Shown here: piece after piece, positions 41,816 through 51,318 of the stretch | How positions within the stretch are numbered: position 1 is the first letter of the stretch | How the letters are laid out: every line of letters begins with the position of its first letter | From: Bacteroidales bacterium | GTDB taxonomy: Bacteria > Bacteroidota > Bacteroidia > Bacteroidales > UBA932 | NCBI GenBank assembly: GCA_017469845.1 | Contig: JAFUFP010000045.1 | Location: 90,567-154,566, forward strand | Direction: 5' to 3' | DNA length: 64,000 nucleotides | Made by a program: the position numbers and the translations under genes | The notes under the pieces: generated by a model | Databases searched by the model: none | What the model saw: the letters and a program-made list of their open reading frames with translations, nothing else | Told to the model about the DNA's origin: nothing

Positions 41816-44092
41816 CTATTCCTCTGAAAGTGAATAGGGTCTATCTTCGGGAGCGGTACCCCTTTCCGAGGAAGGAGCGGAAGACATATCAAAGAATATC
41901 TTGCCGCCTCGGACAATATCGGAATGGTTGATGTAATTCTTCGTCCAGGATTTTCCGCCCATCTTCATTTCCCTCACGAACATGTTCTCCGATGAATTCT
42001 CCGGAGCCTCGACAAGAAGATCTCCGCCCGGAAGATGGACCGTGACCTTTTTGAAAAGCGGGGTTCCGAGGGCGTACTGTCCGCTCGCGGGACATACCGG
42101 GTAGAATCCCAGCGCGGAGAACACGTACCAGGCCGAAGTCTGTCCGTTGTCCTCGTCGCCGCAGTATCCGTCCGCCCAGGGGGTATAGAATTTCTCCATC
42201 ACTTCCCTCACCCTCGACTGGGTCTTCCAGGGCTGGCCGCTCCAGTCATAGAGATAGAGCATATGCTGGATGGGCTGGTTGCCGTGGGCGTAGTTGCCCA
42301 TTCCCATGACGGTCATTTCGGTGATCTCGTGTATCGGGAATCCGTAATACGAGTCATCGTATTTGGGAGGCATGAGGAAGACTCCGTCAAGAGTGGCGTT
42401 GAACTTCTCTTCTCCGCCCATAAGGCCGATGAGACCCTTAACGTCGTGGAAAACGCTCCAGGTGTAGTGGAGAGAATTCCCCTCAGTGAAGTCCCCTCCC
42501 CATTTGAGAGGACTGAAGGGACGGCGGAACTCCCCGTCCTCCTTCCTTCCGTTCATCAGGCCGTTTTCGCTGTCATAGAGATTGCGGTAATTGAAGGCGG
42601 CCTTCCTGAAGGGGGCAAGTTCCTCTTCGCTCTTTCCGAGGGCTTTGCCGAAAGTGTAAATGCACCAGTCATCGTAGGCGTACTCGAGAGTGCGGGCCGC
42701 GTTCTCGCTGATGCCCACATCACAGGGTACGTACCCCAGGGAATCGTACCATTCGTATCCGAGCCTTCCGGTGGAACCGACCTCCGGATGGACCGCATGC
42801 GCCCCATGGACGACGGCCTCCCAGAGTTTTTCAGCGTCATAGCCCCTGATTCCGCTGACGAAGGCGTCGGCCACAACCGAAGCGGAATTGTTGCCCACCA
42901 TACAGTTACGATGTCCAGGCGACTCCCACTCCGGCAGGAATCCGCTTTCGAGGTAATCGTTGACGAGTCCCTCCTGGACCTTCACCGAAGTCTCGGGATA
43001 GACGAGGTTCATAAGCGGGAAAAGACTCCTGAAAGTGTCCCAGAAACCGGTGTCGGTGAAGAAGTATCCGTTTTCCACTTTCCCGGTGTGTGGGCTGTAA
43101 TGGACCCTCTCCCCCGAAGGGGTTATTTCCGAAAGGTCCCTCGGGAAAAGGAGGGCCCTGTATAGGCACGAGTAGAATGTGCGAAGATGGTCGATATTGT
43201 CATCCTCCACTTCGATCCTTCCGAGAGCGGAGTTCCAAGCCTGTCTTGCCAAAAGTTTCGTTTCGTCGAAAGTTGAAGGAAGTTCCTCCAGATTCTCCTC
43301 AGCCTGATCCAGGGAGATGAACGAAGAAGCGACCCTAAGATGTACCTTCTGTCCCGCCTTCGTCGGGAATCCCACTATAGCCTGGGAATGGGGTGAAGAA
43401 ACTTCATCCTCTTCCACCACGGCCCCGTCAGAAATCACATCGGAGAAGACGAACGGAGTGTCGGATTCGATTATGAACCAGTTCCGGAAATTCTCTCCCA
43501 CTCCCCCGTGGTTATGGGTATTGTACCCGACGATCCTGTTTTCCGAAACCCTTATCCATGAGTCTCCGGGGAAAGCGTCCACGACAAGATACGACATCTC
43601 CATTTCGGGATACGTAAGACGGAAGAAAGCGGCATGCGAAGTCGGGGTGAGTTCCGCCGTCACGTCATGGTCGGCAAGATACACGCTGTAATAATAAGGT
43701 GTAGCCGTCTCGGCCTTGTGCGAGAACCAGCTTTCCCTTTCGTCCTCATCCCAAACGGGTCCCGTCGTGACCGGCATTATCGAGAAGGAGCCGTAGTCGT
43801 TGATCCACGGTGAGGGCTGATGGGTCTGCTTGAGGCCGCGGATATGGGTGGCGTCATAACGGTAGGTCCATCCGTCACCGTCCTTTCCGGTCTGCGGGGT
43901 CCAGAAATTCATACCCCACGGAACGGCCACCGCCGGGTAGGTGTTGCCGGTGGAAAGGCTGAATGTCGACAGCGTTCCGCAGAGCGGATTGACATAGTCG
44001 ACTGGTTCTTCCATTTTGAAAGAAGGCTTTTCCGAGCATGAGAGGGCAAGGGCAAGGAAAAGTGACGAAAGAATGATTCCGGGATGTTTCAT
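41816..44092 (-). CDS. GH92 alpha-mannosidase lipoprotein
   Basis: Start ATG 44092, lipobox ALSC; GNTYP, WGMNFWTPQT, QTHQPSPWINDY, GFWDTFR, YAHGNQP and GDEDNGQ. Confidence 0.93.
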   Translation of the reverse strand: MKHPGIILSSLFLALALSCSEKPSFKMEEPVDYVNPLCGTLSTFSLSTGNTYPAVAVPWGMNFWTPQTGKDGDGWTYRYDATHIRGLKQTHQPSPWINDYGSFSIMPVTTGPVWDEDERESWFSHKAETATPYYYSVYLADHDVTAELTPTSHAAFFRLTYPEMEMSYLVVDAFPGDSWIRVSENRIVGYNTHNHGGVGENFRNWFIIESDTPFVFSDVISDGAVVEEDEVSSPHSQAIVGFPTKAGQKVHLRVASSFISLDQAEENLEELPSTFDETKLLARQAWNSALGRIEVEDDNIDHLRTFYSCLYRALLFPRDLSEITPSGERVHYSPHTGKVENGYFFTDTGFWDTFRSLFPLMNLVYPETSVKVQEGLVNDYLESGFLPEWESPGHRNCMVGNNSASVVADAFVSGIRGYDAEKLWEAVVHGAHAVHPEVGSTGRLGYEWYDSLGYVPCDVGISENAARTLEYAYDDWCIYTFGKALGKSEEELAPFRKAAFNYRNLYDSENGLMNGRKEDGEFRRPFSPLKWGGDFTEGNSLHYTWSVFHDVKGLIGLMGGEEKFNATLDGVFLMPPKYDDSYYGFPIHEITEMTVMGMGNYAHGNQPIQHMLYLYDWSGQPWKTQSRVREVMEKFYTPWADGYCGDEDNGQTSAWYVFSALGFYPVCPASGQYALGTPLFKKVTVHLPGGDLLVEAPENSSENMFVREMKMGGKSWTKNYINHSDIVRGGKIFFDMSSAPSSERGTAPEDRPYSLSEE

Positions 44093-44363
44093 AAAAAAAC
44101 GTAAATAGCTGTGCTGTCCCCCAAATATACTGCAAAAACTGAGAAAAAACTTTCTCCGGAGGATAATTCGCCCCAAGGAAGGCCGGGGCGGAGTTTTTCC
44201 CGAAGGGCGAATAGAGAAAAAAAATGGGCCCAAAGTTCAATTTCTTTTGGATTTCCGGCAATAAAGCAGTAATTTGCAAGACCTCTTCAGAATCTTTATT
44301 AAAATTGTTAAAAACCCCACTCTCTTATTTCACGAAATGGAAGTTTGGGGTATCTTTGCAAAC

Positions 44364-46319
44364 ATGATTTGGACATTATTCAAGCTATTGGGCTGCATCG
44401 CCGTTCTCATGTACGGAATGAAGGTGATGAGCGAAGCCCTTCAGAAGATGGCGGGACCGGGACTGCGCCACATTCTCGGAGCCATGACCACCAACAGGTT
44501 CACGGGAGTACTGACGGGTATGTTGATCTGTGTGGCGGTTCAGTCTTCAGCGGCGACCACCGTCATGACGGTCTCATTCGTCAACGCCGCTCTCCTCACC
44601 CTCTCGCAGGCCATCTCGGTAATCATGGGAGCGAATATCGGAACGACGCTTTCCGCCTGGATAATGTCAGCCGGATTCTCGTTCAACATCGCGAACATCG
44701 TCTGGCCGATATTCCTGATAGCGATTGTCCTCATCCAGTTCCCGAAACGGCGATACATCGGTGACTTCCTCTTCGGAATCTCCTTCCTCCTTTTCGCCCT
44801 CGGCACCCTGAACGCCACCGGAAGGGAGATGGACCTCGCCCACAACGAATCCGTCGTGAACTTCTTCGCTTCGTTCGATTCGGGCAGTTACCTCACGATC
44901 ATCCTTTTCCTCATAATAGGAGCCATCCTCACCTGCATAGCGCAGTCTTCGGCCGCCCTGATGGCCATCACAATGGTCCTCTGCACTTCGGGAGTCCTCA
45001 CCATCTACCAGGGTATCGCCCTTGTCATGGGTGAAAACATCGGAACGACCGTAACCGCGAACGTAGCCGCACTGTCGGCCAACACCCAGGCTAGAAGAGC
45101 GGCCCTCGCCCACCTCCTTTTCAACGTATTCGGAGTGCTGTGGTGCCTTTGCATCTTCTATCCCTTCGTCAACACGGCATGCTCCATAGTGGGAGTCGAC
45201 CCCCACGCCGAGACTCAGAGCGCCGCCAGGCTCTCCTTCGTTCTGGCGACCTTCCATACGATGTTCAACGTCATCAACACGAGCATCCTCATCTGGTTCA
45301 TACCCCAGATGGAGAAGATCGTATGCAAGATCATTCCTCAGAAGAAGATGGATGTCGAAGAAGAGTTCCGTCTGCAGTACATCCAGGTCGGTATCATGAA
45401 GACCCCTGAAATCGCGATATTCCAGGCCCAGAAGGAGACCGAGCTCTTCGGTCAGAAGATGGCCCAGATGCTCCAGATGGTCCGTGACCTTTACAAGGAA
45501 ACCGACATGGACCGCTTCAAGGAGAAACAAGCCAAGATCCGGAAGATGGAGGAGATGTCCGACCGTATGGAAAGCGGCATCGGCAGCTACCTGGCCCAGG
45601 TCGGAAACGCCCACCTGAGTGATGACTCAAAGAGAAAGATCCGCACGATGCTCCGCGCAATCAGCGAACTTGAAAGTACCGGAGACAGCCTCCTCAACAT
45701 GTCAAGGACAATGGAGCGCAAGCTCTCCCAGAAGGCCACCTTCACCGCCAATCAGGAAGAGGGTATCGCCCAGATGTTCGACCTTCTGGCCGACGCCATC
45801 GACAATATGGGCAAGGTCATGACCGGAGACGGTGACATCGAAGTTTCGCTCGCGATCGAGAACAACATCGACACCCTGAGGACCAAGCTCCGCAACCAGA
45901 ATACCGCCGACGTGGATGAGGGCAAGTATTCGTTCGTGGTCGGAACCATCTTCATCGACCTCGTACGCGAATGCGAGAAGTGCGGTGACTACATCATAAA
46001 CGTCGTCGAAGCCAAGAAGGGAAAGAGGGAGAATGAAGTCGACACCGACTCCCTCGTCGTGGATCCCGAGAAGAAGACCGTGACCCTCAACGGGGAGGAC
46101 CTTCTTTTCACCAAGACCGAATTCGAGATCCTGAACCTCCTTGTCGCCAATCCCGGCAGGACGTTCTCAAGAAGCGAACTGATCGACATCGTATGGCCCA
46201 AGGACGTGGTCGTCGGAGAAAGGGTCGTTGACGTGAACATCCGCCGCATCCGCCAGAAGCTCGGTGACATGGCCAGCAGGATCAACACGAGAGCCGGATA
46301 CGGATACTACTTCGAATAA
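44364..46319 (+). CDS. Na+/Pi cotransporter (NptA type, PhoU-like tail) fused to an OmpR/PhoB-type winged-helix DNA-binding domain
   Basis: Two repeats QSSAAT...GANIGTT and QSSAAL...GENIGTT; helical PhoU-like region ending ECEKCGDY..NV; then FTKTEFEIL.LL..NPGRTFSR.ELI..VW...VDVNIRRIRQKL...I.TR.GYGY; -7 box at 44351-44358. Confidence 0.9.
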   Translation: MIWTLFKLLGCIAVLMYGMKVMSEALQKMAGPGLRHILGAMTTNRFTGVLTGMLICVAVQSSAATTVMTVSFVNAALLTLSQAISVIMGANIGTTLSAWIMSAGFSFNIANIVWPIFLIAIVLIQFPKRRYIGDFLFGISFLLFALGTLNATGREMDLAHNESVVNFFASFDSGSYLTIILFLIIGAILTCIAQSSAALMAITMVLCTSGVLTIYQGIALVMGENIGTTVTANVAALSANTQARRAALAHLLFNVFGVLWCLCIFYPFVNTACSIVGVDPHAETQSAARLSFVLATFHTMFNVINTSILIWFIPQMEKIVCKIIPQKKMDVEEEFRLQYIQVGIMKTPEIAIFQAQKETELFGQKMAQMLQMVRDLYKETDMDRFKEKQAKIRKMEEMSDRMESGIGSYLAQVGNAHLSDDSKRKIRTMLRAISELESTGDSLLNMSRTMERKLSQKATFTANQEEGIAQMFDLLADAIDNMGKVMTGDGDIEVSLAIENNIDTLRTKLRNQNTADVDEGKYSFVVGTIFIDLVRECEKCGDYIINVVEAKKGKRENEVDTDSLVVDPEKKTVTLNGEDLLFTKTEFEILNLLVANPGRTFSRSELIDIVWPKDVVVGERVVDVNIRRIRQKLGDMASRINTRAGYGYYFE

Positions 46320-46476: not shown

Positions 46477-47424
46477 ATGAACAGGGAAAAGGAGATATAC
46501 AAAGTGACCCTTGCGGGAAGCGTGATCAACGTCACCCTGACGGCAGGAAAATTCATCGCCGGAATACTCGGACACAGCGCCGCGATGATAGCTGATGCGG
46601 TGCATTCGCTGTCAGACCTTCTCACCGACGCTGTCGTCATCATTTTCGTACACATCAGCGGCAAGCCCGCCGACCGCAGCCATGAATTCGGTCACGGGAA
46701 ATACGAGACCCTGGCCTCGGCCTTCGTCGGCATGGCCCTTCTGGTGGTCGCCGGAGGCATAATCTTCAATGCGGTCGAGACCATCATCGAGTGGGCGAAC
46801 GGTAACGACATCCCCCGTCCCGGAATGGTGGCCCTTTGGGTCGCCGCGGCCTCGATCCTCCTCAAGGAACTGGCGTTCCGCTTCACAATAGCCAAAGGCA
46901 GGGAACTTTCCTCCCAGGCCCTCGAGGCCAACGCCTGGCACCACCGCAGTGACGCCCTCTCCTCAATCGGCACATTCGTCGGAATCGGAGGAGCGATACT
47001 CCTCGGTGACCGCTGGACCGTGCTCGACCCCATAGCATCAATAGTGGTGGGATTCTTCATAGTGAGGGTCGCCTGGAAACTTCTCAAGGAGTGTTTCGGA
47101 GACCTGATGGAAGCTTCACTGCCTGAGGAGGTAGAGAAAGAGATCCTCGACATCGTCACTTCTTTCCCGGACGTTTCGGATCCGCACAACCTCAAGACAC
47201 GCCGCATCGGAAACAACTACGCCATAGAAATCCACATAAGGATGGACGGTGACATTCCGCTGGTGAAGGCCCACACGAGGGCGTACTACATAGAAAAGGC
47301 GTTGGCGGAACATTTCGGGAAGGAGACCCATACGATCATCCACATCGAGCCGGTCAAGCCTTTCAGCAAATACGGACCTGACCTTGAGAAAATCCTGCCC
47401 GAACAGATTTCTGACGTCCAATGA
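46477..47424 (+). CDS. Cation diffusion facilitator (FieF-like) transporter
   Basis: ADAVHSLSD, FGHGKYE and NAWHHRSDA; C-terminal metal-binding domain. Confidence 0.92.
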   Translation: MNREKEIYKVTLAGSVINVTLTAGKFIAGILGHSAAMIADAVHSLSDLLTDAVVIIFVHISGKPADRSHEFGHGKYETLASAFVGMALLVVAGGIIFNAVETIIEWANGNDIPRPGMVALWVAAASILLKELAFRFTIAKGRELSSQALEANAWHHRSDALSSIGTFVGIGGAILLGDRWTVLDPIASIVVGFFIVRVAWKLLKECFGDLMEASLPEEVEKEILDIVTSFPDVSDPHNLKTRRIGNNYAIEIHIRMDGDIPLVKAHTRAYYIEKALAEHFGKETHTIIHIEPVKPFSKYGPDLEKILPEQISDVQ

Positions 47425-47466: not shown

Positions 47467-50400
47467 TCAATCCTCTTCTTCTGAGTCGGCGCCCTCTCCG
47501 AGGTATTTCGTCGGAGATACTCCGAAAGTATACTTGAAACGCGTAGTGAAACTCTGCCTTGTCTGGTAACCCAGCATATAGGCGATTTCCTTTATGCTGT
47601 ACATCCTGGATTTGAGAAGGGCCAGGGCCTTGTTCATCCTATACTGATTGATGTACTGTATGGGGCTCAGGCCGGTCAGGCTCTTCACCTTCATGTAGAA
47701 GGAAGTGCGGCTCATGCCGAGTTCCTTGTGGAGGACGTTCACGTTGATCTCCTCGTCCTTGAGCCTCTCGTCAAGAGCCTTGGAGAACTTCTCCATGAAA
47801 ATCTTGTCCAGAGGGCTGAGTCCCGATTCCTCGGAGGATTCTTCCGCAAGGGATTCCGAAGTCACGTTCTGCACCTTGGTCTGAAGCTTCGCACGGTTCC
47901 TCATCACGCTTTCCGCCACGGCGAGAAGATACTCCGATATGAAGGGCTTCAGGACATAAGCGTCCGCGCCGGTGTGGAGTCCCTTTATCTGTGACGCAAC
48001 GTCTGTCTTCGCCGTAAGTAGGATCACGGACACGGAGCAAAGGTCGCTGTCCTCTTTGATGGCCGCGCAAAGCCTGAACCCGTCCATCCTGTCCATCATG
48101 ACGTCGCTCAGCACGATGTCGACATACTCTTTCCGCAGTATATCCAGGGCCGAAAGGCCGTCTTCAGCCGTTAACACCTTTCCGCAGAAACTGAACAGTT
48201 CCCCCAGATACATCCTCATGTCGGGATTGTCCTCGACGATGAGAATGCTGCATCCTCCGAGAAGGCCGTTCCCTTCCGGAGAGAAGTCCTTCCCCGGATT
48301 CTCCGGAGCGACTGCCGGCTCATCCCCGAGAATCTCGTATGAATTCCCCGGAACGGGAAGCACGAACTTGAATACCGCCCCGCCTCCCGGAGCGTTCTCG
48401 GCCTTTATGGCTCCGTCCTGGAGATTCACGAGTTCACGGACGTAATTGAGCCCTATTCCGAATCCCTGCACATCCACCCCTCCGGAATTCTTCCTCGTAT
48501 GACGGGAGAAAATGCTTTCTGTCTCCCCTTCCGGGATTCCGGGGCCCTGATCCGAGACCCTGACTTCCACCATCTTTGTATCGAAGGGCCTGCCGTAGAC
48601 GGATTTCGCTTCAGATTTGTCTAAAATTGCCGTGGAAACGGTTATCGTCCCGGGATCGAGCGAGTACTTGATCGCGTTGGAAAGAAGGTTCGACATGATG
48701 CGGGAGAACTTCGACCCGTCGAAATCGAACGCCATGTGCGGCGATTCCACAAGGATAGTCTGGCGCTTCTGGATGGCGATCGGGGTGAAAAGTCCGACCG
48801 CTTTCTCGATTTGGGTGCGGATGTCATTCCGTTCCCTTCTGACCACAGTGTTGCTGGAAAGGTCGTTACCCAGGATCTGGTTCGTCAAATCAAGCAGTTC
48901 CCTTGCGCTGCGGGACACGAGGTCAACGCTCTTTCGGTCCGCAGGCGTCAAGACTGAGGAGCGCTCCAGGTCACCCAAAGGGGCTACGATGAGGGAAAGC
49001 GGAGTCCTTATCTCATGGGAAAGATTCGTGAAAAGATCGATTTTCGCCTTGTCGACTTCCCGTTGTATCCTCATCTTCTCTTCACGGGCGGCGGTTTCCT
49101 TTCTCCTCCTGTACCATCGCCATAGGGCGAGGGCCGACAATAAGGCTACGGCGGCATAGGCAAGGATAGCCCACCACCTTAGCCAGGGTTTCTGCCGGAC
49201 AGTGAACGAGAACGACTTCACCATATCGTCCGGAGTGCCGTCGGCCCTGAGCTTGAACACATACTTTCCGTGCGGAAGGCCCGGATAGGAAACGTACCTG
49301 TTCCTCATGTCGTGCCACTCGTCCTCGTATCCTTCAAGGGTATACTTGTAGCGTATGCTCAGGTGATCGTAGTTTATGTCTATACACTTGAAAGCGAAGG
49401 AGTTCTCATTATAGTCAAAGACGGCCGGAGAAGACATGTCCCCCTGGTAAGGGACATCATTCACAAGCAGATGATCGATATAGTACCGGATGTCGCCGTT
49501 GCTGAAAAGACTTCCTAGGTCATCTGAGGAAAAAACGGTCAGCCCGTTGGAGAAGGCGAAATAAAGATTCCCCTCAGAATCCTTGAAGGAAGTGGTATAG
49601 TAATCGTACCTGTTGGAGGTATTGTAATAGCTCATCCCTCCGCCGTCGGAAGGGTCCAGTTTCACAAGACCGTAGGCCGATCCTATCCAGATATTGCCGA
49701 GGTCATCCTCCTCGAGGGAATAGAAGGCGTATTCGAAATACGGCAATGAGGAAGAGAGTTTCCAATCCGGAAGGATGTATTCATCCCTGGATGCGTCCTC
49801 CCCGCCTATCCGCAAAACTTTCCTGTCGGTCGTAAGGCACCATACATCCCCATTCCTGGACAGAAGGGCATCGACGATGGCCGCACCTTCATCCAGAACG
49901 GGAAGACCTTCGCGCATCGTGCCACCTCTGCGGAAAGAAACCCTGTCCGAGCGGTACTCCAGGTAGAAATTCCTCGACGGATCGGCGGCGACGGGCACCG
50001 GGAGTTCACCTTCCAGTGTCATGAAAGAAGACTTGTCGGAATATTCGTACTGGTTGTAGTAGGAAGCGAAACGGATGCTCCCGTCCACGTCTTCGACTAT
50101 ACGGTACACCATGTTCCCTTCGAAACGGCCGACCTGTTCGGCGGTCAAAGCGTCTCCCGAAATCGAGAAGCGGCCGAGATAATCATTGGTGGCCAGCCAC
50201 ACCTTGTTGTCGGAAGAAATCATGAAGGCCCTGATGTCCTGACCGTCCAATCCGGAAGATATCCGGGCTTCGGTGACCCTGCCGGTATTCTTGTCGAAAA
50301 CGGAAAGCGCTCCGTTTTCAAGGAACCATATTCTCCCGGCGGCGTCTTCCGCTATCCCCTGAATCCTTTTCCCTTCGGAATGAAGGACAAGGTCGTCAAG

Positions 50401-51318
50401 AAAACCGGGACGCCCATCCCTGTGGATGACCAGGCCGTAAAGGCCCATCCTGGAACCGGACAGCCAGACATGGCTCCGGTCCAGGGCGAAAGTGCACATT
50501 CCGGAAGGGGTGACGCCGCTGAATGACGAAATCCTTTCGGCGCCGCCTGAGGATCCGACAACGAATATGCCGCCTTCCTCCGTGAAACAGAGAACGGAGT
50601 CTTCACCGTACGGAGCGACGGAAACGATTCCCGCAGGTCCGCCGCCGAAAGGGCGGAGAGACAGTTCATCCATATCGGCACGAAGAAGTCCTGAGCGGGA
50701 ACCCAAGACAACGCTTCCGTCACTGAGCGGAACGATTCCCCCTATGGATGAACCTTCTCCGAGGTCCATCCTCTTCACCAGTTCCAGAGAGCGGTTGAAA
50801 ACAAGAAACGTATTGTTTGCCGAGGCGAGGACGAAGTCACCGTCCCGCCCCGCCGTCACTACAAAGGTGTTTTCCGGAAATGAAAATGCGTATGAGGAAA
50901 CCGTTTCGCCGTTTTCCTTGTCCAGGATATAGATACCGGTGTCGTTCGTGAAGATGAGTTCCGACTGTGAAAGGTCGCAAAGGGTCTTGTTGTTACCGAA
51001 CATCGTGCTCTGATAACGCACAACACCCTCTTCCGGGGTCCAATGCCCGATGAATGAAGGGGTGGCAATCCAGAAGGTCCCGTCATTCTGGGGCAGGAAA
51101 TCAAGGACATTGGTGCTCCCGATGATTTCCATTATTTCGGTGCCGTCATAAGTATAAAGGCCCCTCAAGGATGAAAAGCAGATCTTCCCCTCCCGGTCGG
51201 CCTTTATCGAAGTGACGCTTTCGCCGTATGTCCCGCCGACAAGGACGGGCGACTGTCCGAGTGCGGAGACACCGGACAGAAGGACGGAAACAGCGATGGA
51301 GGTCAGGATTCTCTTCAT
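47467..51318 (-). CDS. Hybrid two-component sensor kinase/response regulator (beta-propeller, Y_Y_Y, HK, REC, AraC)
   Basis: FTNLSHEIRTPL H-box, NLLSNAIKY, GFGIGL, DIVLSDVMM receiver and C-terminal AraC HTH; divergent from susC. Confidence 0.93.
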   Translation of the reverse strand: MKRILTSIAVSVLLSGVSALGQSPVLVGGTYGESVTSIKADREGKICFSSLRGLYTYDGTEIMEIIGSTNVLDFLPQNDGTFWIATPSFIGHWTPEEGVVRYQSTMFGNNKTLCDLSQSELIFTNDTGIYILDKENGETVSSYAFSFPENTFVVTAGRDGDFVLASANNTFLVFNRSLELVKRMDLGEGSSIGGIVPLSDGSVVLGSRSGLLRADMDELSLRPFGGGPAGIVSVAPYGEDSVLCFTEEGGIFVVGSSGGAERISSFSGVTPSGMCTFALDRSHVWLSGSRMGLYGLVIHRDGRPGFLDDLVLHSEGKRIQGIAEDAAGRIWFLENGALSVFDKNTGRVTEARISSGLDGQDIRAFMISSDNKVWLATNDYLGRFSISGDALTAEQVGRFEGNMVYRIVEDVDGSIRFASYYNQYEYSDKSSFMTLEGELPVPVAADPSRNFYLEYRSDRVSFRRGGTMREGLPVLDEGAAIVDALLSRNGDVWCLTTDRKVLRIGGEDASRDEYILPDWKLSSSLPYFEYAFYSLEEDDLGNIWIGSAYGLVKLDPSDGGGMSYYNTSNRYDYYTTSFKDSEGNLYFAFSNGLTVFSSDDLGSLFSNGDIRYYIDHLLVNDVPYQGDMSSPAVFDYNENSFAFKCIDINYDHLSIRYKYTLEGYEDEWHDMRNRYVSYPGLPHGKYVFKLRADGTPDDMVKSFSFTVRQKPWLRWWAILAYAAVALLSALALWRWYRRRKETAAREEKMRIQREVDKAKIDLFTNLSHEIRTPLSLIVAPLGDLERSSVLTPADRKSVDLVSRSARELLDLTNQILGNDLSSNTVVRRERNDIRTQIEKAVGLFTPIAIQKRQTILVESPHMAFDFDGSKFSRIMSNLLSNAIKYSLDPGTITVSTAILDKSEAKSVYGRPFDTKMVEVRVSDQGPGIPEGETESIFSRHTRKNSGGVDVQGFGIGLNYVRELVNLQDGAIKAENAPGGGAVFKFVLPVPGNSYEILGDEPAVAPENPGKDFSPEGNGLLGGCSILIVEDNPDMRMYLGELFSFCGKVLTAEDGLSALDILRKEYVDIVLSDVMMDRMDGFRLCAAIKEDSDLCSVSVILLTAKTDVASQIKGLHTGADAYVLKPFISEYLLAVAESVMRNRAKLQTKVQNVTSESLAEESSEESGLSPLDKIFMEKFSKALDERLKDEEINVNVLHKELGMSRTSFYMKVKSLTGLSPIQYINQYRMNKALALLKSRMYSIKEIAYMLGYQTRQSFTTRFKYTFGVSPTKYLGEGADSEEED

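Follow-up and report, generated by a model that had tools for sequence, protein, structure and literature searches.

A Sodium/Phosphate Transporter Fused to a PhoB-Derived DNA-Binding Domain in Rumen Bacteroidales, a Candidate Membrane-Anchored Pho Regulator

The window analyzed here is a stretch of 64,000 nucleotides from a Bacteroidales bacterium of the UBA932 lineage (GenBank assembly GCA_017469845.1, contig JAFUFP010000045.1, positions 90,567 to 154,566 of the forward strand). At positions 44364 to 46319 of the window lies a gene in which an NptA/YjbB-type transporter of sodium and inorganic phosphate (Pi), together with its PhoU-like domain, is joined to a winged helix-turn-helix (wHTH) domain derived from PhoB. 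The gene almost certainly specifies a functional product, and comparison with related loci indicates that the fusion is old, recurrent, and selected, with its roots in an nptA-phoB-phoR operon, and not a recent accident. The protein is moderately likely to act as a membrane-anchored, DNA-binding one-component Pho regulator that at least autoregulates its own gene.

Domain architecture of the fused protein

Translation of positions 44364 to 46319 on the plus strand gives a single open reading frame (ORF) of 651 amino acids (aa) with no internal stop. The ATG start at 44364 is backed by homology, and the stop codon occupies 46317 to 46319; an in-frame TTG upstream, at 44274, was rejected as the start because it has no support from homologs, which begin with MI(L/W)T. 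A protein of equal length (P0002) is 97 to 98% identical. The gene and its parts are listed below with the evidence for each, which includes the ratio of nonsynonymous to synonymous substitution rates (dN/dS) and the predicted local distance difference test (pLDDT) of an AlphaFold model.

44364..46319, plus strand: whole gene, NptA/YjbB-type Na/Pi transporter with PhoU-like domain and PhoB-derived wHTH, 651 aa plus stop (profile searches, P0002)
44364..45353, plus strand: polytopic transporter domain with two Na_Pi_cotrans repeats, residues 1-330 (Pfam, NCBIfam, alignment, dN/dS 0.02-0.08)
45405..46019, plus strand: cytoplasmic PhoU-like six-helix bundle, residues 348-552 (Pfam, alignment, AlphaFold, Foldseek)
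46020..46052, plus strand: flexible basic linker, residues 553-563 (pLDDT <50, alignment)
46053..46316, plus strand: OmpR/PhoB-type wHTH from Bacteroidales PhoB, residues 564-651 (Pfam, NCBIfam, wHTH tree, structure, dN/dS)
46218..46265, plus strand: recognition helix ERVVDVNIRRIRQKLG, residues 619-634 (alignment to Escherichia coli PhoB)

Pfam identified two Na_Pi_cotrans repeats (E value of 9.5e-53), PhoU (2.6e-7, with one repeat above the threshold at 31.4 bits), and Trans_reg_C at residues 578 to 650 (3e-21). In NCBIfam, residues 4 to 327 matched TIGR00704 (NaPi_cotrn_rel, the YjbB-like "Na/Pi-cotransporter II-related" family) with 210.1 bits, which equals the cut-off, and NF037997 was matched with 175 bits against a cut-off of 50. 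The best match of residues 551 to 651 was the C-terminal half of the Bacteroidetes PhoB model NF053854 (2e-32), with the alignment restricted to model positions 125 to 225. Neither Pfam nor NCBIfam gave a match to a receiver (REC) domain anywhere in the 651-aa protein, which is therefore not a response regulator. The QSS...GxNIGTT motifs of the transporter lie at residues 60 to 95 and 194 to 229, and their QSS and G(A/E)NIGTT parts are invariant among 121 aligned relatives, both fused and unfused; the PhoU ExxxD motifs (E396..D400 and E538..D542) are likewise invariant in the alignment of relatives.

The AlphaFold model, built on 51 fused homologs and with a mean pLDDT of 76, contains a very confident helical PhoU-like bundle at residues 360 to 550 (pLDDT of ~90), a disordered linker at residues 553 to 562 (pLDDT of <50), and a canonical wHTH of beta-sheet, three helices, and hairpin at residues 564 to 651 (pLDDT of about 70 to 89). 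In Foldseek searches, the middle part superposed on whole PhoU proteins (1T72 and 2I0M; template modeling [TM] score of 0.80 to 0.83 over 211 to 219 columns), and the top match of the wHTH was the effector domain of E. coli PhoB, free (1GXQ) or on pho-box DNA (1GXP), with a TM score of 0.79 to 0.81 and 36% identity; sequence matches of the wHTH in the PDB reached 1e-15. An earlier note made from the nucleotide sequence had described this layout, namely, an uninterrupted ORF with two Na/Pi repeats and a PhoU-like region, the linker EAKKGKRENEVDTDSL (residues 549 to 564), and a winged helix of about 90 aa (nucleotides about 46044 to 46316), with neither a receiver domain nor an in-frame ATG at the junction, and the profile and structure comparisons bear it out. 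The sole methionine past residue 520 is M636. An internal start that would yield a free wHTH was considered and rejected, since residue 552 is not conserved: it is Met in 48 of 86 proteins with the window's type of junction and Leu, Lys, or Arg in the others, including Lys in the window's own protein.

Distribution and transcription of the fusion

The junction is found in independently obtained DNA. Across positions 46000 to 46070, where the earlier note had proposed that continuity be checked, contigs from four unrelated metagenome studies (gut, goat, and sheep) are gapless, and three metatranscriptome contigs with 97 to 100% identity cover positions 45878 to 46287, which indicates that the fused reading frame is transcribed, with the reservation that DNA carry-over into metatranscriptome libraries is possible.

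A search with residues 400 to 651 retrieved 192 relatives, of which 121 were aligned. The three-domain architecture, for which a search of related genomes had been suggested, is shared by 87 of these protein clusters, and the remaining 34 end after the PhoU-like domain (552 to 574 aa). Three types of junction between the PhoU-like domain and the wHTH were distinguished, as follows.

Type A (window): ...NVVEAKKGKRENEVDTDS-LVVD
Type B (same genus): ...EARLGAxRNGIRFRGIQxD
Type C (Prevotella): ...EARLGKRFLRFQGLxVxLD

The window's type occurs in about 25 species-representative genomes, all of them metagenome-assembled genomes (MAGs), from the gastrointestinal tracts of cattle, sheep, goat, yak, buffalo, and deer. 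A second and much larger fused family is present in Prevotella, with 979 matches, the best 120 of which all combine PF02690 and PF00486, and the cultured species Xylanibacter (Prevotella) ruminicola carries a fused protein (SEF57719.1/A0A1H5T4N2). Everywhere, the database names of the fused proteins are only "Na/Pi symporter" or "phosphate:Na+ symporter". No further fused gene was found in a random sample of 300 genomes of the order; the rarity that this sample suggested was not upheld, since targeted searches show that the carriers are concentrated in particular rumen lineages. Three loci (L038, L068, and L079) consist of Bacteroidales-type NaPi genes on contigs binned as Oribacterium or Fibrobacter MAGs, probably through misbinning and not transfer.

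Selection and residue conservation

All three domains have evolved under purifying selection. The dN/dS values of the wHTH, on which a test of selection had been recommended, range from 0.06 to 0.26 in 10 of the 11 pairs with usable dS, covering all three junction types, and those of the PhoU-like and membrane domains range from 0.01 to 0.28 and from 0.02 to 0.08, respectively; dS is saturated in most pairs, and the least saturated pair gives a wHTH value of 0.06. The strong constraint on the membrane domain suggests that the fused protein still performs Na+-coupled Pi transport. The eleventh value, 0.44, comes from two type B paralogs within one genome (L017 and L018 of G307), where the wHTH of the second copy is strongly diverged (49% identity, helix VDTYINRLRRK), which could be neofunctionalization or relaxation after duplication.

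Residue conservation was measured in 86 fused proteins, nearly all of type A, with PhoB residue numbers taken from the alignment to E. coli PhoB. The hydrophobic core of the wHTH, the W611-P-K-D loop (counterpart of the PhoB transactivation loop W184-G185), and the residues R620 (PhoB R193), R627 (R200), R630 (R203), and K632 are each 83 to 100% conserved. The window's recognition helix ERVVDVNIRRIRQKLG keeps all of the arginines and has counterparts of PhoB R193, V197, R200, R201, and R203. In the type A linker, the motif K-x-G-K-R (K551, G553, K554, and R555) is nearly invariant.

Origin of the fusion from an nptA-phoB-phoR operon

Five related genomes, namely, G330 (same genus), UBA4262, UBA4259, Prevotella RUI566, and a Bacteroidaceae MAG, have an unfused ortholog of the transporter gene (42 to 65% identity), and two genes on the same strand follow it after a gap of 18 to 133 nucleotides. 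The first encodes a response regulator of 224 to 238 aa, and the three of these that were tested score 311 to 334 bits on the Bacteroidetes PhoB equivalog (cut-off of 270); the second encodes a kinase of 306 to 400 aa. The presence of unfused orthologs in such operons points to nptA-phoB-phoR as the ancestral state. The nptA-linked PhoR kinases of L021, L051, and L060 are short (306 to 312 aa), as if the usual sensory part were missing, and the one tested (L021) matches only the C-terminal 230 of the 583 positions of the Bacteroidetes PhoR model. A short PhoR would fit signaling via the PhoU-like domain of the transporter.

Measured against these operons, the fusion corresponds to the loss of the stop codon, the spacer, about 125 receiver codons, and phoR. 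No phoR is left at any of the fused loci examined, and tblastn found no remnants of a wHTH or phoR downstream of unfused or fused relatives. In the transporter-core tree, some nptA-phoB loci diverge at the base of type C and others at the base of types A and B together. A single fused clade excluding the nptA-phoB loci was rejected (difference in log likelihood of 148.7; P value of 4e-66 in the approximately unbiased test, for which the constrained group was named after the tree had been seen). In the tree of the wHTH, each type is monophyletic, and all fall within one clade (support of 98/97) with the nptA-linked PhoBs. Taken together, the two trees and the constraint test are explained most economically by two or more independent fusions. 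The unfused members of the type A clade are scattered single tips on long branches, and well-supported branches force at least 10 state changes, which are read as secondary losses of the wHTH. The earlier note had raised the alternative that a recent deletion fused nptA to a phoB-like gene. The orthologous operons show that the fusion did arise from an nptA gene adjacent to phoB, whereas a recent or decaying event does not fit the dozens of species, the two or more origins, and the purifying selection.

Other Pho components in genomes carrying the fusion

The window's genome, which is 100% complete, holds only two Trans_reg_C domains, one in the fused protein and one in a 222-aa PhoB-like regulator on contig C29 that scores 242 bits on the PhoB model, below the cut-off of 270. 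The gene of this regulator belongs to a cassette (C29:13075-17503) in which it lies divergently from that of a 748-aa PiT-family transporter and is followed by that of a 417-aa kinase. The cassette shares 97% DNA identity with its counterpart in a second species (G342), although the fused proteins of the two species are only about 75% identical, and it therefore appears to be a recent horizontal acquisition. The window's genome also contains one unfused NaPi-PhoU paralog; no PstB above the threshold (best score of 152 versus 343 bits) and no free-standing PhoU were found in it.

The fused protein is the only OmpR-type wHTH protein detected in 13 of the 21 type A genomes, and the fusion is also the only one in G307 (92% complete, with two fused copies), G336, and G327; the incompleteness of MAGs weakens these counts and bears against a regulatory role to that extent. 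Each of the three nptA-phoB genomes tested has a canonical PhoB, whereas none was detected in the three type B genomes tested or in three of the four type C genomes. Although MAG incompleteness tempers it as well, this distribution is what would be expected if the fusion had replaced PhoB/PhoR in most carriers.

Promoters and candidate operators

The Bacteroidetes -7 promoter element has the consensus TAnnTTTG. The upstream regions of the fused genes cannot be aligned except for three islands, namely, a -7 box of this form, a TTGCA-like -33 element, and a box whose proximal copy lies 43 to 48 bp upstream of the -7 element. The corresponding features of the window are as follows.

44297..44311, plus strand: candidate operator TATTAA-N3-TGTTAA, at the same position as repeats in five orthologous promoters
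44351..44358, plus strand: predicted Bacteroidetes -7 box TATCTTTG (TAnnTTTG), 45 bp downstream of the proximal hexamer, as in orthologs
44270..44277, plus strand: further -7-like box TAATTTGC, 5' of the candidate operator

Five type A genes with the recognition helix VDVNIR(R/H)IR have TGTTAA-N5-TGTTAA with at most one mismatch, and a type A subclade with the helix VDxSI(R/K)(D/E)IR has an invariant TGTTGATAA, often with a second copy, (T/G)GATAA, 11 bp upstream. In the nptA-phoBR operons (L021, L034, L051, and L047), GTTACA(A) is directly repeated two to four times, in one orientation or the other, at a period of 11 bp and about 70 to 135 bp upstream of the start codon. This repeat is a candidate Bacteroidales Pho box; no box of the GTTACA(A) type was found defined in the paper on PhoB of Bacteroides fragilis (PMC3547664). 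Pairs with the 11-bp period also precede three type C genes and one type B gene (L031), and the type B gene L017 has two GTTACAA copies 32 bp apart; L057, L018, and L033 have no clear box upstream. The PhoB helix VDVNITR(L/I)RKK is retained in the box-bearing fusions of types B and C. In the genes examined with a clear box, GTTACA accompanies the PhoB-type helix (NITRLRKK), in the nptA-phoBR operons and in some type B and C fusions, and TG(T/A)TAA accompanies the type A helices. With one mismatch allowed, a genome contains only 2 to 14 such patterns, and chance therefore does not explain why they recur at the same position in the promoters. Two genomes, G338 and G340, have TGTTAA-N5-TGTTAA at the fused gene and no other OmpR-type protein to bind it. 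These promoter footprints are the main evidence from which binding of DNA by the tethered wHTH, and autoregulation, would follow.

A strict covariation of recognition helix and box within type A was considered and is weakened by the nearest relatives of the window's protein (P0003 to P0005); P0005, for example, has an inverted arrangement, TTATCA...TGGATAA. A regulon prediction was also abandoned. Four type A genomes were scanned for TGTTAA-N5-TGTTAA and six genomes of types B and C for GTTACA-N5-GTTACA, and neither was commoner than a control pattern; except at the promoters of the fused genes themselves and at one kinase-regulator operon, no match adjoined a Pi-related gene.

Elsewhere in the window's genome, the promoter of the PiT and regulator-kinase genes on C29 has four hexamers (TGTTAA/TATTAA/GGTTAA/TGTTAA) at an 11-bp period. 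TGTTAA-type arrays are also present at C45:14009-14040, before the unfused NaPi-PhoU paralog, and at C13:57412-57445, before a small lipoprotein-like gene that is followed by a Cu-oxidase_4 gene; the genes at these two arrays are possible members of a local Pho regulon. The resident response regulator may own the C29, C45, and C13 sites. In G339, TGTTAA repeats precede an operon for a histidine kinase and a response regulator.

Proposed mechanism and alternative explanations

Of the functions suggested for the protein, that of a membrane-tethered transcription factor, as the earlier note had put it, is the best supported, given the conserved fold, the conserved residues for contact with the DNA backbone, the conserved loop for contact with RNA polymerase, the status of the fusion as the sole OmpR-type wHTH in most carriers, and the repeats in its own promoters. 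The protein would comprise a still-functional NptA/YjbB-type transporter and a PhoU-like domain, flexibly linked to the DNA-binding and RNA polymerase-contacting domain of PhoB. In Staphylococcus aureus, the PhoU domain of NptA modulates PhoPR activity (PMC13170248), and in the ancestral operon the PhoU-like domain presumably reported, in a similar way, the transporter state or cytoplasmic Pi to PhoR. In the fusion, it would act directly on the wHTH, for example, by sequestering it or by setting the geometry of a dimer. That the protein senses Pi flux directly, as the earlier note proposed, is an inference from the known role of the NptA PhoU domain in S. aureus.

The effector domain of E. coli PhoB is active without its receiver domain, and the PhoU-like domain or the membrane geometry is therefore expected to hold the attached wHTH in check to some degree. 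The wHTH would autoregulate its own gene by binding the tandem direct repeats that precede the -33/-7 promoter, with two protomers placing their wHTHs head to tail on the repeats and touching RNA polymerase through the WPKD loop. Since the protein would be inserted cotranslationally, its own locus would be the nearest target, in line with the consistent occurrence of sites at own promoters alone; in CadC, a membrane-integrated wHTH activator can capture its chromosomal target site (PMC7888679 and PMC6320335). The fusion would replace PhoB/PhoR in most carriers and, in the window's genome, coexist with the acquired cassette of PiT transporter, response regulator, and kinase, whose promoter carries the same kind of box, so that cross talk is possible. 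A more comprehensive model is put forward tentatively: the working Pi transporter would itself be the Pho transcription factor, uniting the Pst/PhoU-PhoR-PhoB relay in one polypeptide, with gating by the PhoU-like domain according to transport state or cytoplasmic Pi and mainly cis action on its own gene, and it would have evolved at least twice independently in rumen Bacteroidales and displaced the two-component system.

Several observations weigh against a tethered regulator of this kind. The wHTH appears to have been lost at least 10 times and would thus be dispensable in some lineages. The base-contacting positions (PhoB 194, 197, 198, and 201) vary among type A proteins, and one type A subclade has Asp or Glu at PhoB position 201. 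The window's candidate operator has a period of 9 bp, versus 11 bp in the five orthologs, and a sheep-gut metatranscriptome contig (run X28) starts at 44294, 57 nucleotides upstream of the predicted -7 box and just downstream of TAATTTGC, so that the operator could lie within a 5' leader, with the true start upstream. Among the closest proteins, P0003, the nearest relative of the window's protein, has no clear box, and P0004, with an identical helix, has TTGATAA-N4-ATGATAA. In the window's genome and in G339, a conventional response regulator may bind the boxes instead of, or together with, the fusion. Finally, where the fusion is the sole wHTH, no other boxed Pi genes were found.

One alternative, which is rather unlikely, is a signal-independent autoregulator, in which the tethered wHTH binds its own promoter constitutively and provides dosage feedback, with no control of binding by Pi. 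Such feedback would fit the loss of the inhibitory REC domain, the restriction of well-supported targets to the promoters of the fused genes themselves, and the predicted flexibility of the linker, with no confident contact reported between the wHTH and the PhoU-like domain. However, the fusion point is always right behind the PhoU-like domain, the module of Pi signaling in S. aureus, and the replacement of PhoB/PhoR would leave most carriers with no Pi-responsive regulator.

It is unlikely that the boxes are instead bound by a conventional response regulator (here, the PhoB-like regulator on C29) and that the wHTH serves in protein contact, oligomerization, or autoinhibition of transport. The TGTTAA arrays in the kinase-regulator promoters of the window's genome (G000), G342, and G339 speak for this possibility, as do the base-contact positions, which are variable or acidic in several type A subclades, and the repeated loss of the wHTH. 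On the other hand, no other OmpR-type wHTH is encoded in 13 of the 21 type A genomes or in any type B genome examined, and several of these genomes keep boxes; G338 and G340 do so at the fused gene itself. The conservation of the WPKD loop and of the phosphate-contacting arginines is also hard to explain without contact with DNA or RNA polymerase.

Regulated proteolysis is quite improbable. Here, the protein would be a membrane-held proregulator that is cut in the basic linker (GKR) upon a change in Pi, freeing the PhoB-like domain. The nearly invariant and disordered K-x-G-K-R linker of type A is compatible with cleavage, and proteolytic activation has been reported for CadC (PMC11484849); however, the type B and C linkers differ and have no K-x-G-K-R motif, and no protease partner or conserved neighbor was found at the fused loci. 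Finally, an assembly chimera or a pseudogene decaying after a recent deletion, suggested by nothing but the unusual architecture, is ruled out by hundreds of independent occurrences among relatives, purifying selection, junction-spanning DNA contigs of unrelated studies, and transcription across the junction, and its probability is negligible.

Genomic neighborhood

In the window, the fused gene is preceded by a GH92-like glycosidase gene (41816 to 44233, minus strand) and followed by genes for a cation diffusion facilitator transporter (46477 to 47424, plus strand) and a 1,283-aa hybrid two-component regulator (47467 to 51318, minus strand); these identities were assigned by eye, without a scan against family models. 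No conserved gene neighborhood that might have pointed to targets was found, with neighbors differing at every fused locus compared.

Comparison with known systems

The individual modules and their logic are known, and what is new is their covalent union, its recurrence, and the displacement of PhoBR. No description of this architecture was found in the literature searched. To our knowledge, and in that literature, it would be the first described case of a polytopic solute transporter covalently fused to the DNA-binding domain of a transcription factor. It is a long-standing question how PhoU-type domains convert Pi transport or the cytoplasmic Pi level into a signal for transcription, and PhoU signaling is hard to study because the signal passes via a transient complex of transporter, PhoU, and kinase. 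In the fused protein, a PhoU-like domain is wired straight to a DNA-binding output, with no kinase or phosphorylation, so that the state of the sensor could be followed in one protein, through its DNA binding or the activity of the promoter. The fusion is abundant in rumen Prevotella and Cryptobacteroides-like bacteria and present in a cultured species, which makes it experimentally accessible and relevant to the phosphate economy of the rumen.

From its sequence, the fused protein is best described as a member of the NptA/YjbB transporter family that carries a PhoB-derived output. It shares with E. coli YjbB the TIGR00704 family and the two-module layout up to residue ~552, whereas YjbB has no DNA-binding domain. 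NptA of S. aureus belongs to the same transporter family and has a C-terminal PhoU-like domain that feeds Pi status to a Pho regulator (PMC13170248), and the ancestral nptA-phoB-phoR arrangement of Bacteroidales fits this model. However, S. aureus employs a separate kinase and a phosphorylated response regulator, whereas the fusion has lost kinase and receiver and bears the DNA-binding domain on the same chain.

Compared with the PhoB/PhoR-PstSCAB-PhoU system of E. coli, the wHTH is a PhoB homolog (36% identity and TM score of ~0.8 to 1GXP), and many of the candidate operators, although not the window's own with its 9-bp period, are direct repeats with the 11-bp period of tandem PhoB binding, placed upstream of a weak -33 region. 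The differences are that the fused protein has no REC domain and no phosphorylation, that the window's genome has no Pst or free PhoU, and that the candidate boxes are GTTACA or TG(T/A)TAA, whereas the E. coli pho box is CTGTCAT.

Like ToxR, CadC, and TcpP, the fused protein has an OmpR-type wHTH in an integral membrane protein, which would act without phosphorylation. However, those regulators have an N-terminal wHTH, a single transmembrane helix, and a periplasmic sensor, whereas the fused protein has a C-terminal wHTH, a polytopic transporter of ~330 aa, and a cytoplasmic PhoU sensor, with no periplasmic one; CadC senses lysine through a separate transporter, LysP. The fused protein would work like the ToxR/CadC one-component regulators but lies outside that class. 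In the sensor kinases with an SLC5 domain (CbrA/CrbS), a transporter fold is also fused to a signaling output, which is a histidine kinase in need of a response regulator, whereas the output of the fusion is the DNA-binding domain itself. The architecture would extend both the ToxR/CadC concept and the idea of the "trigger transporter".

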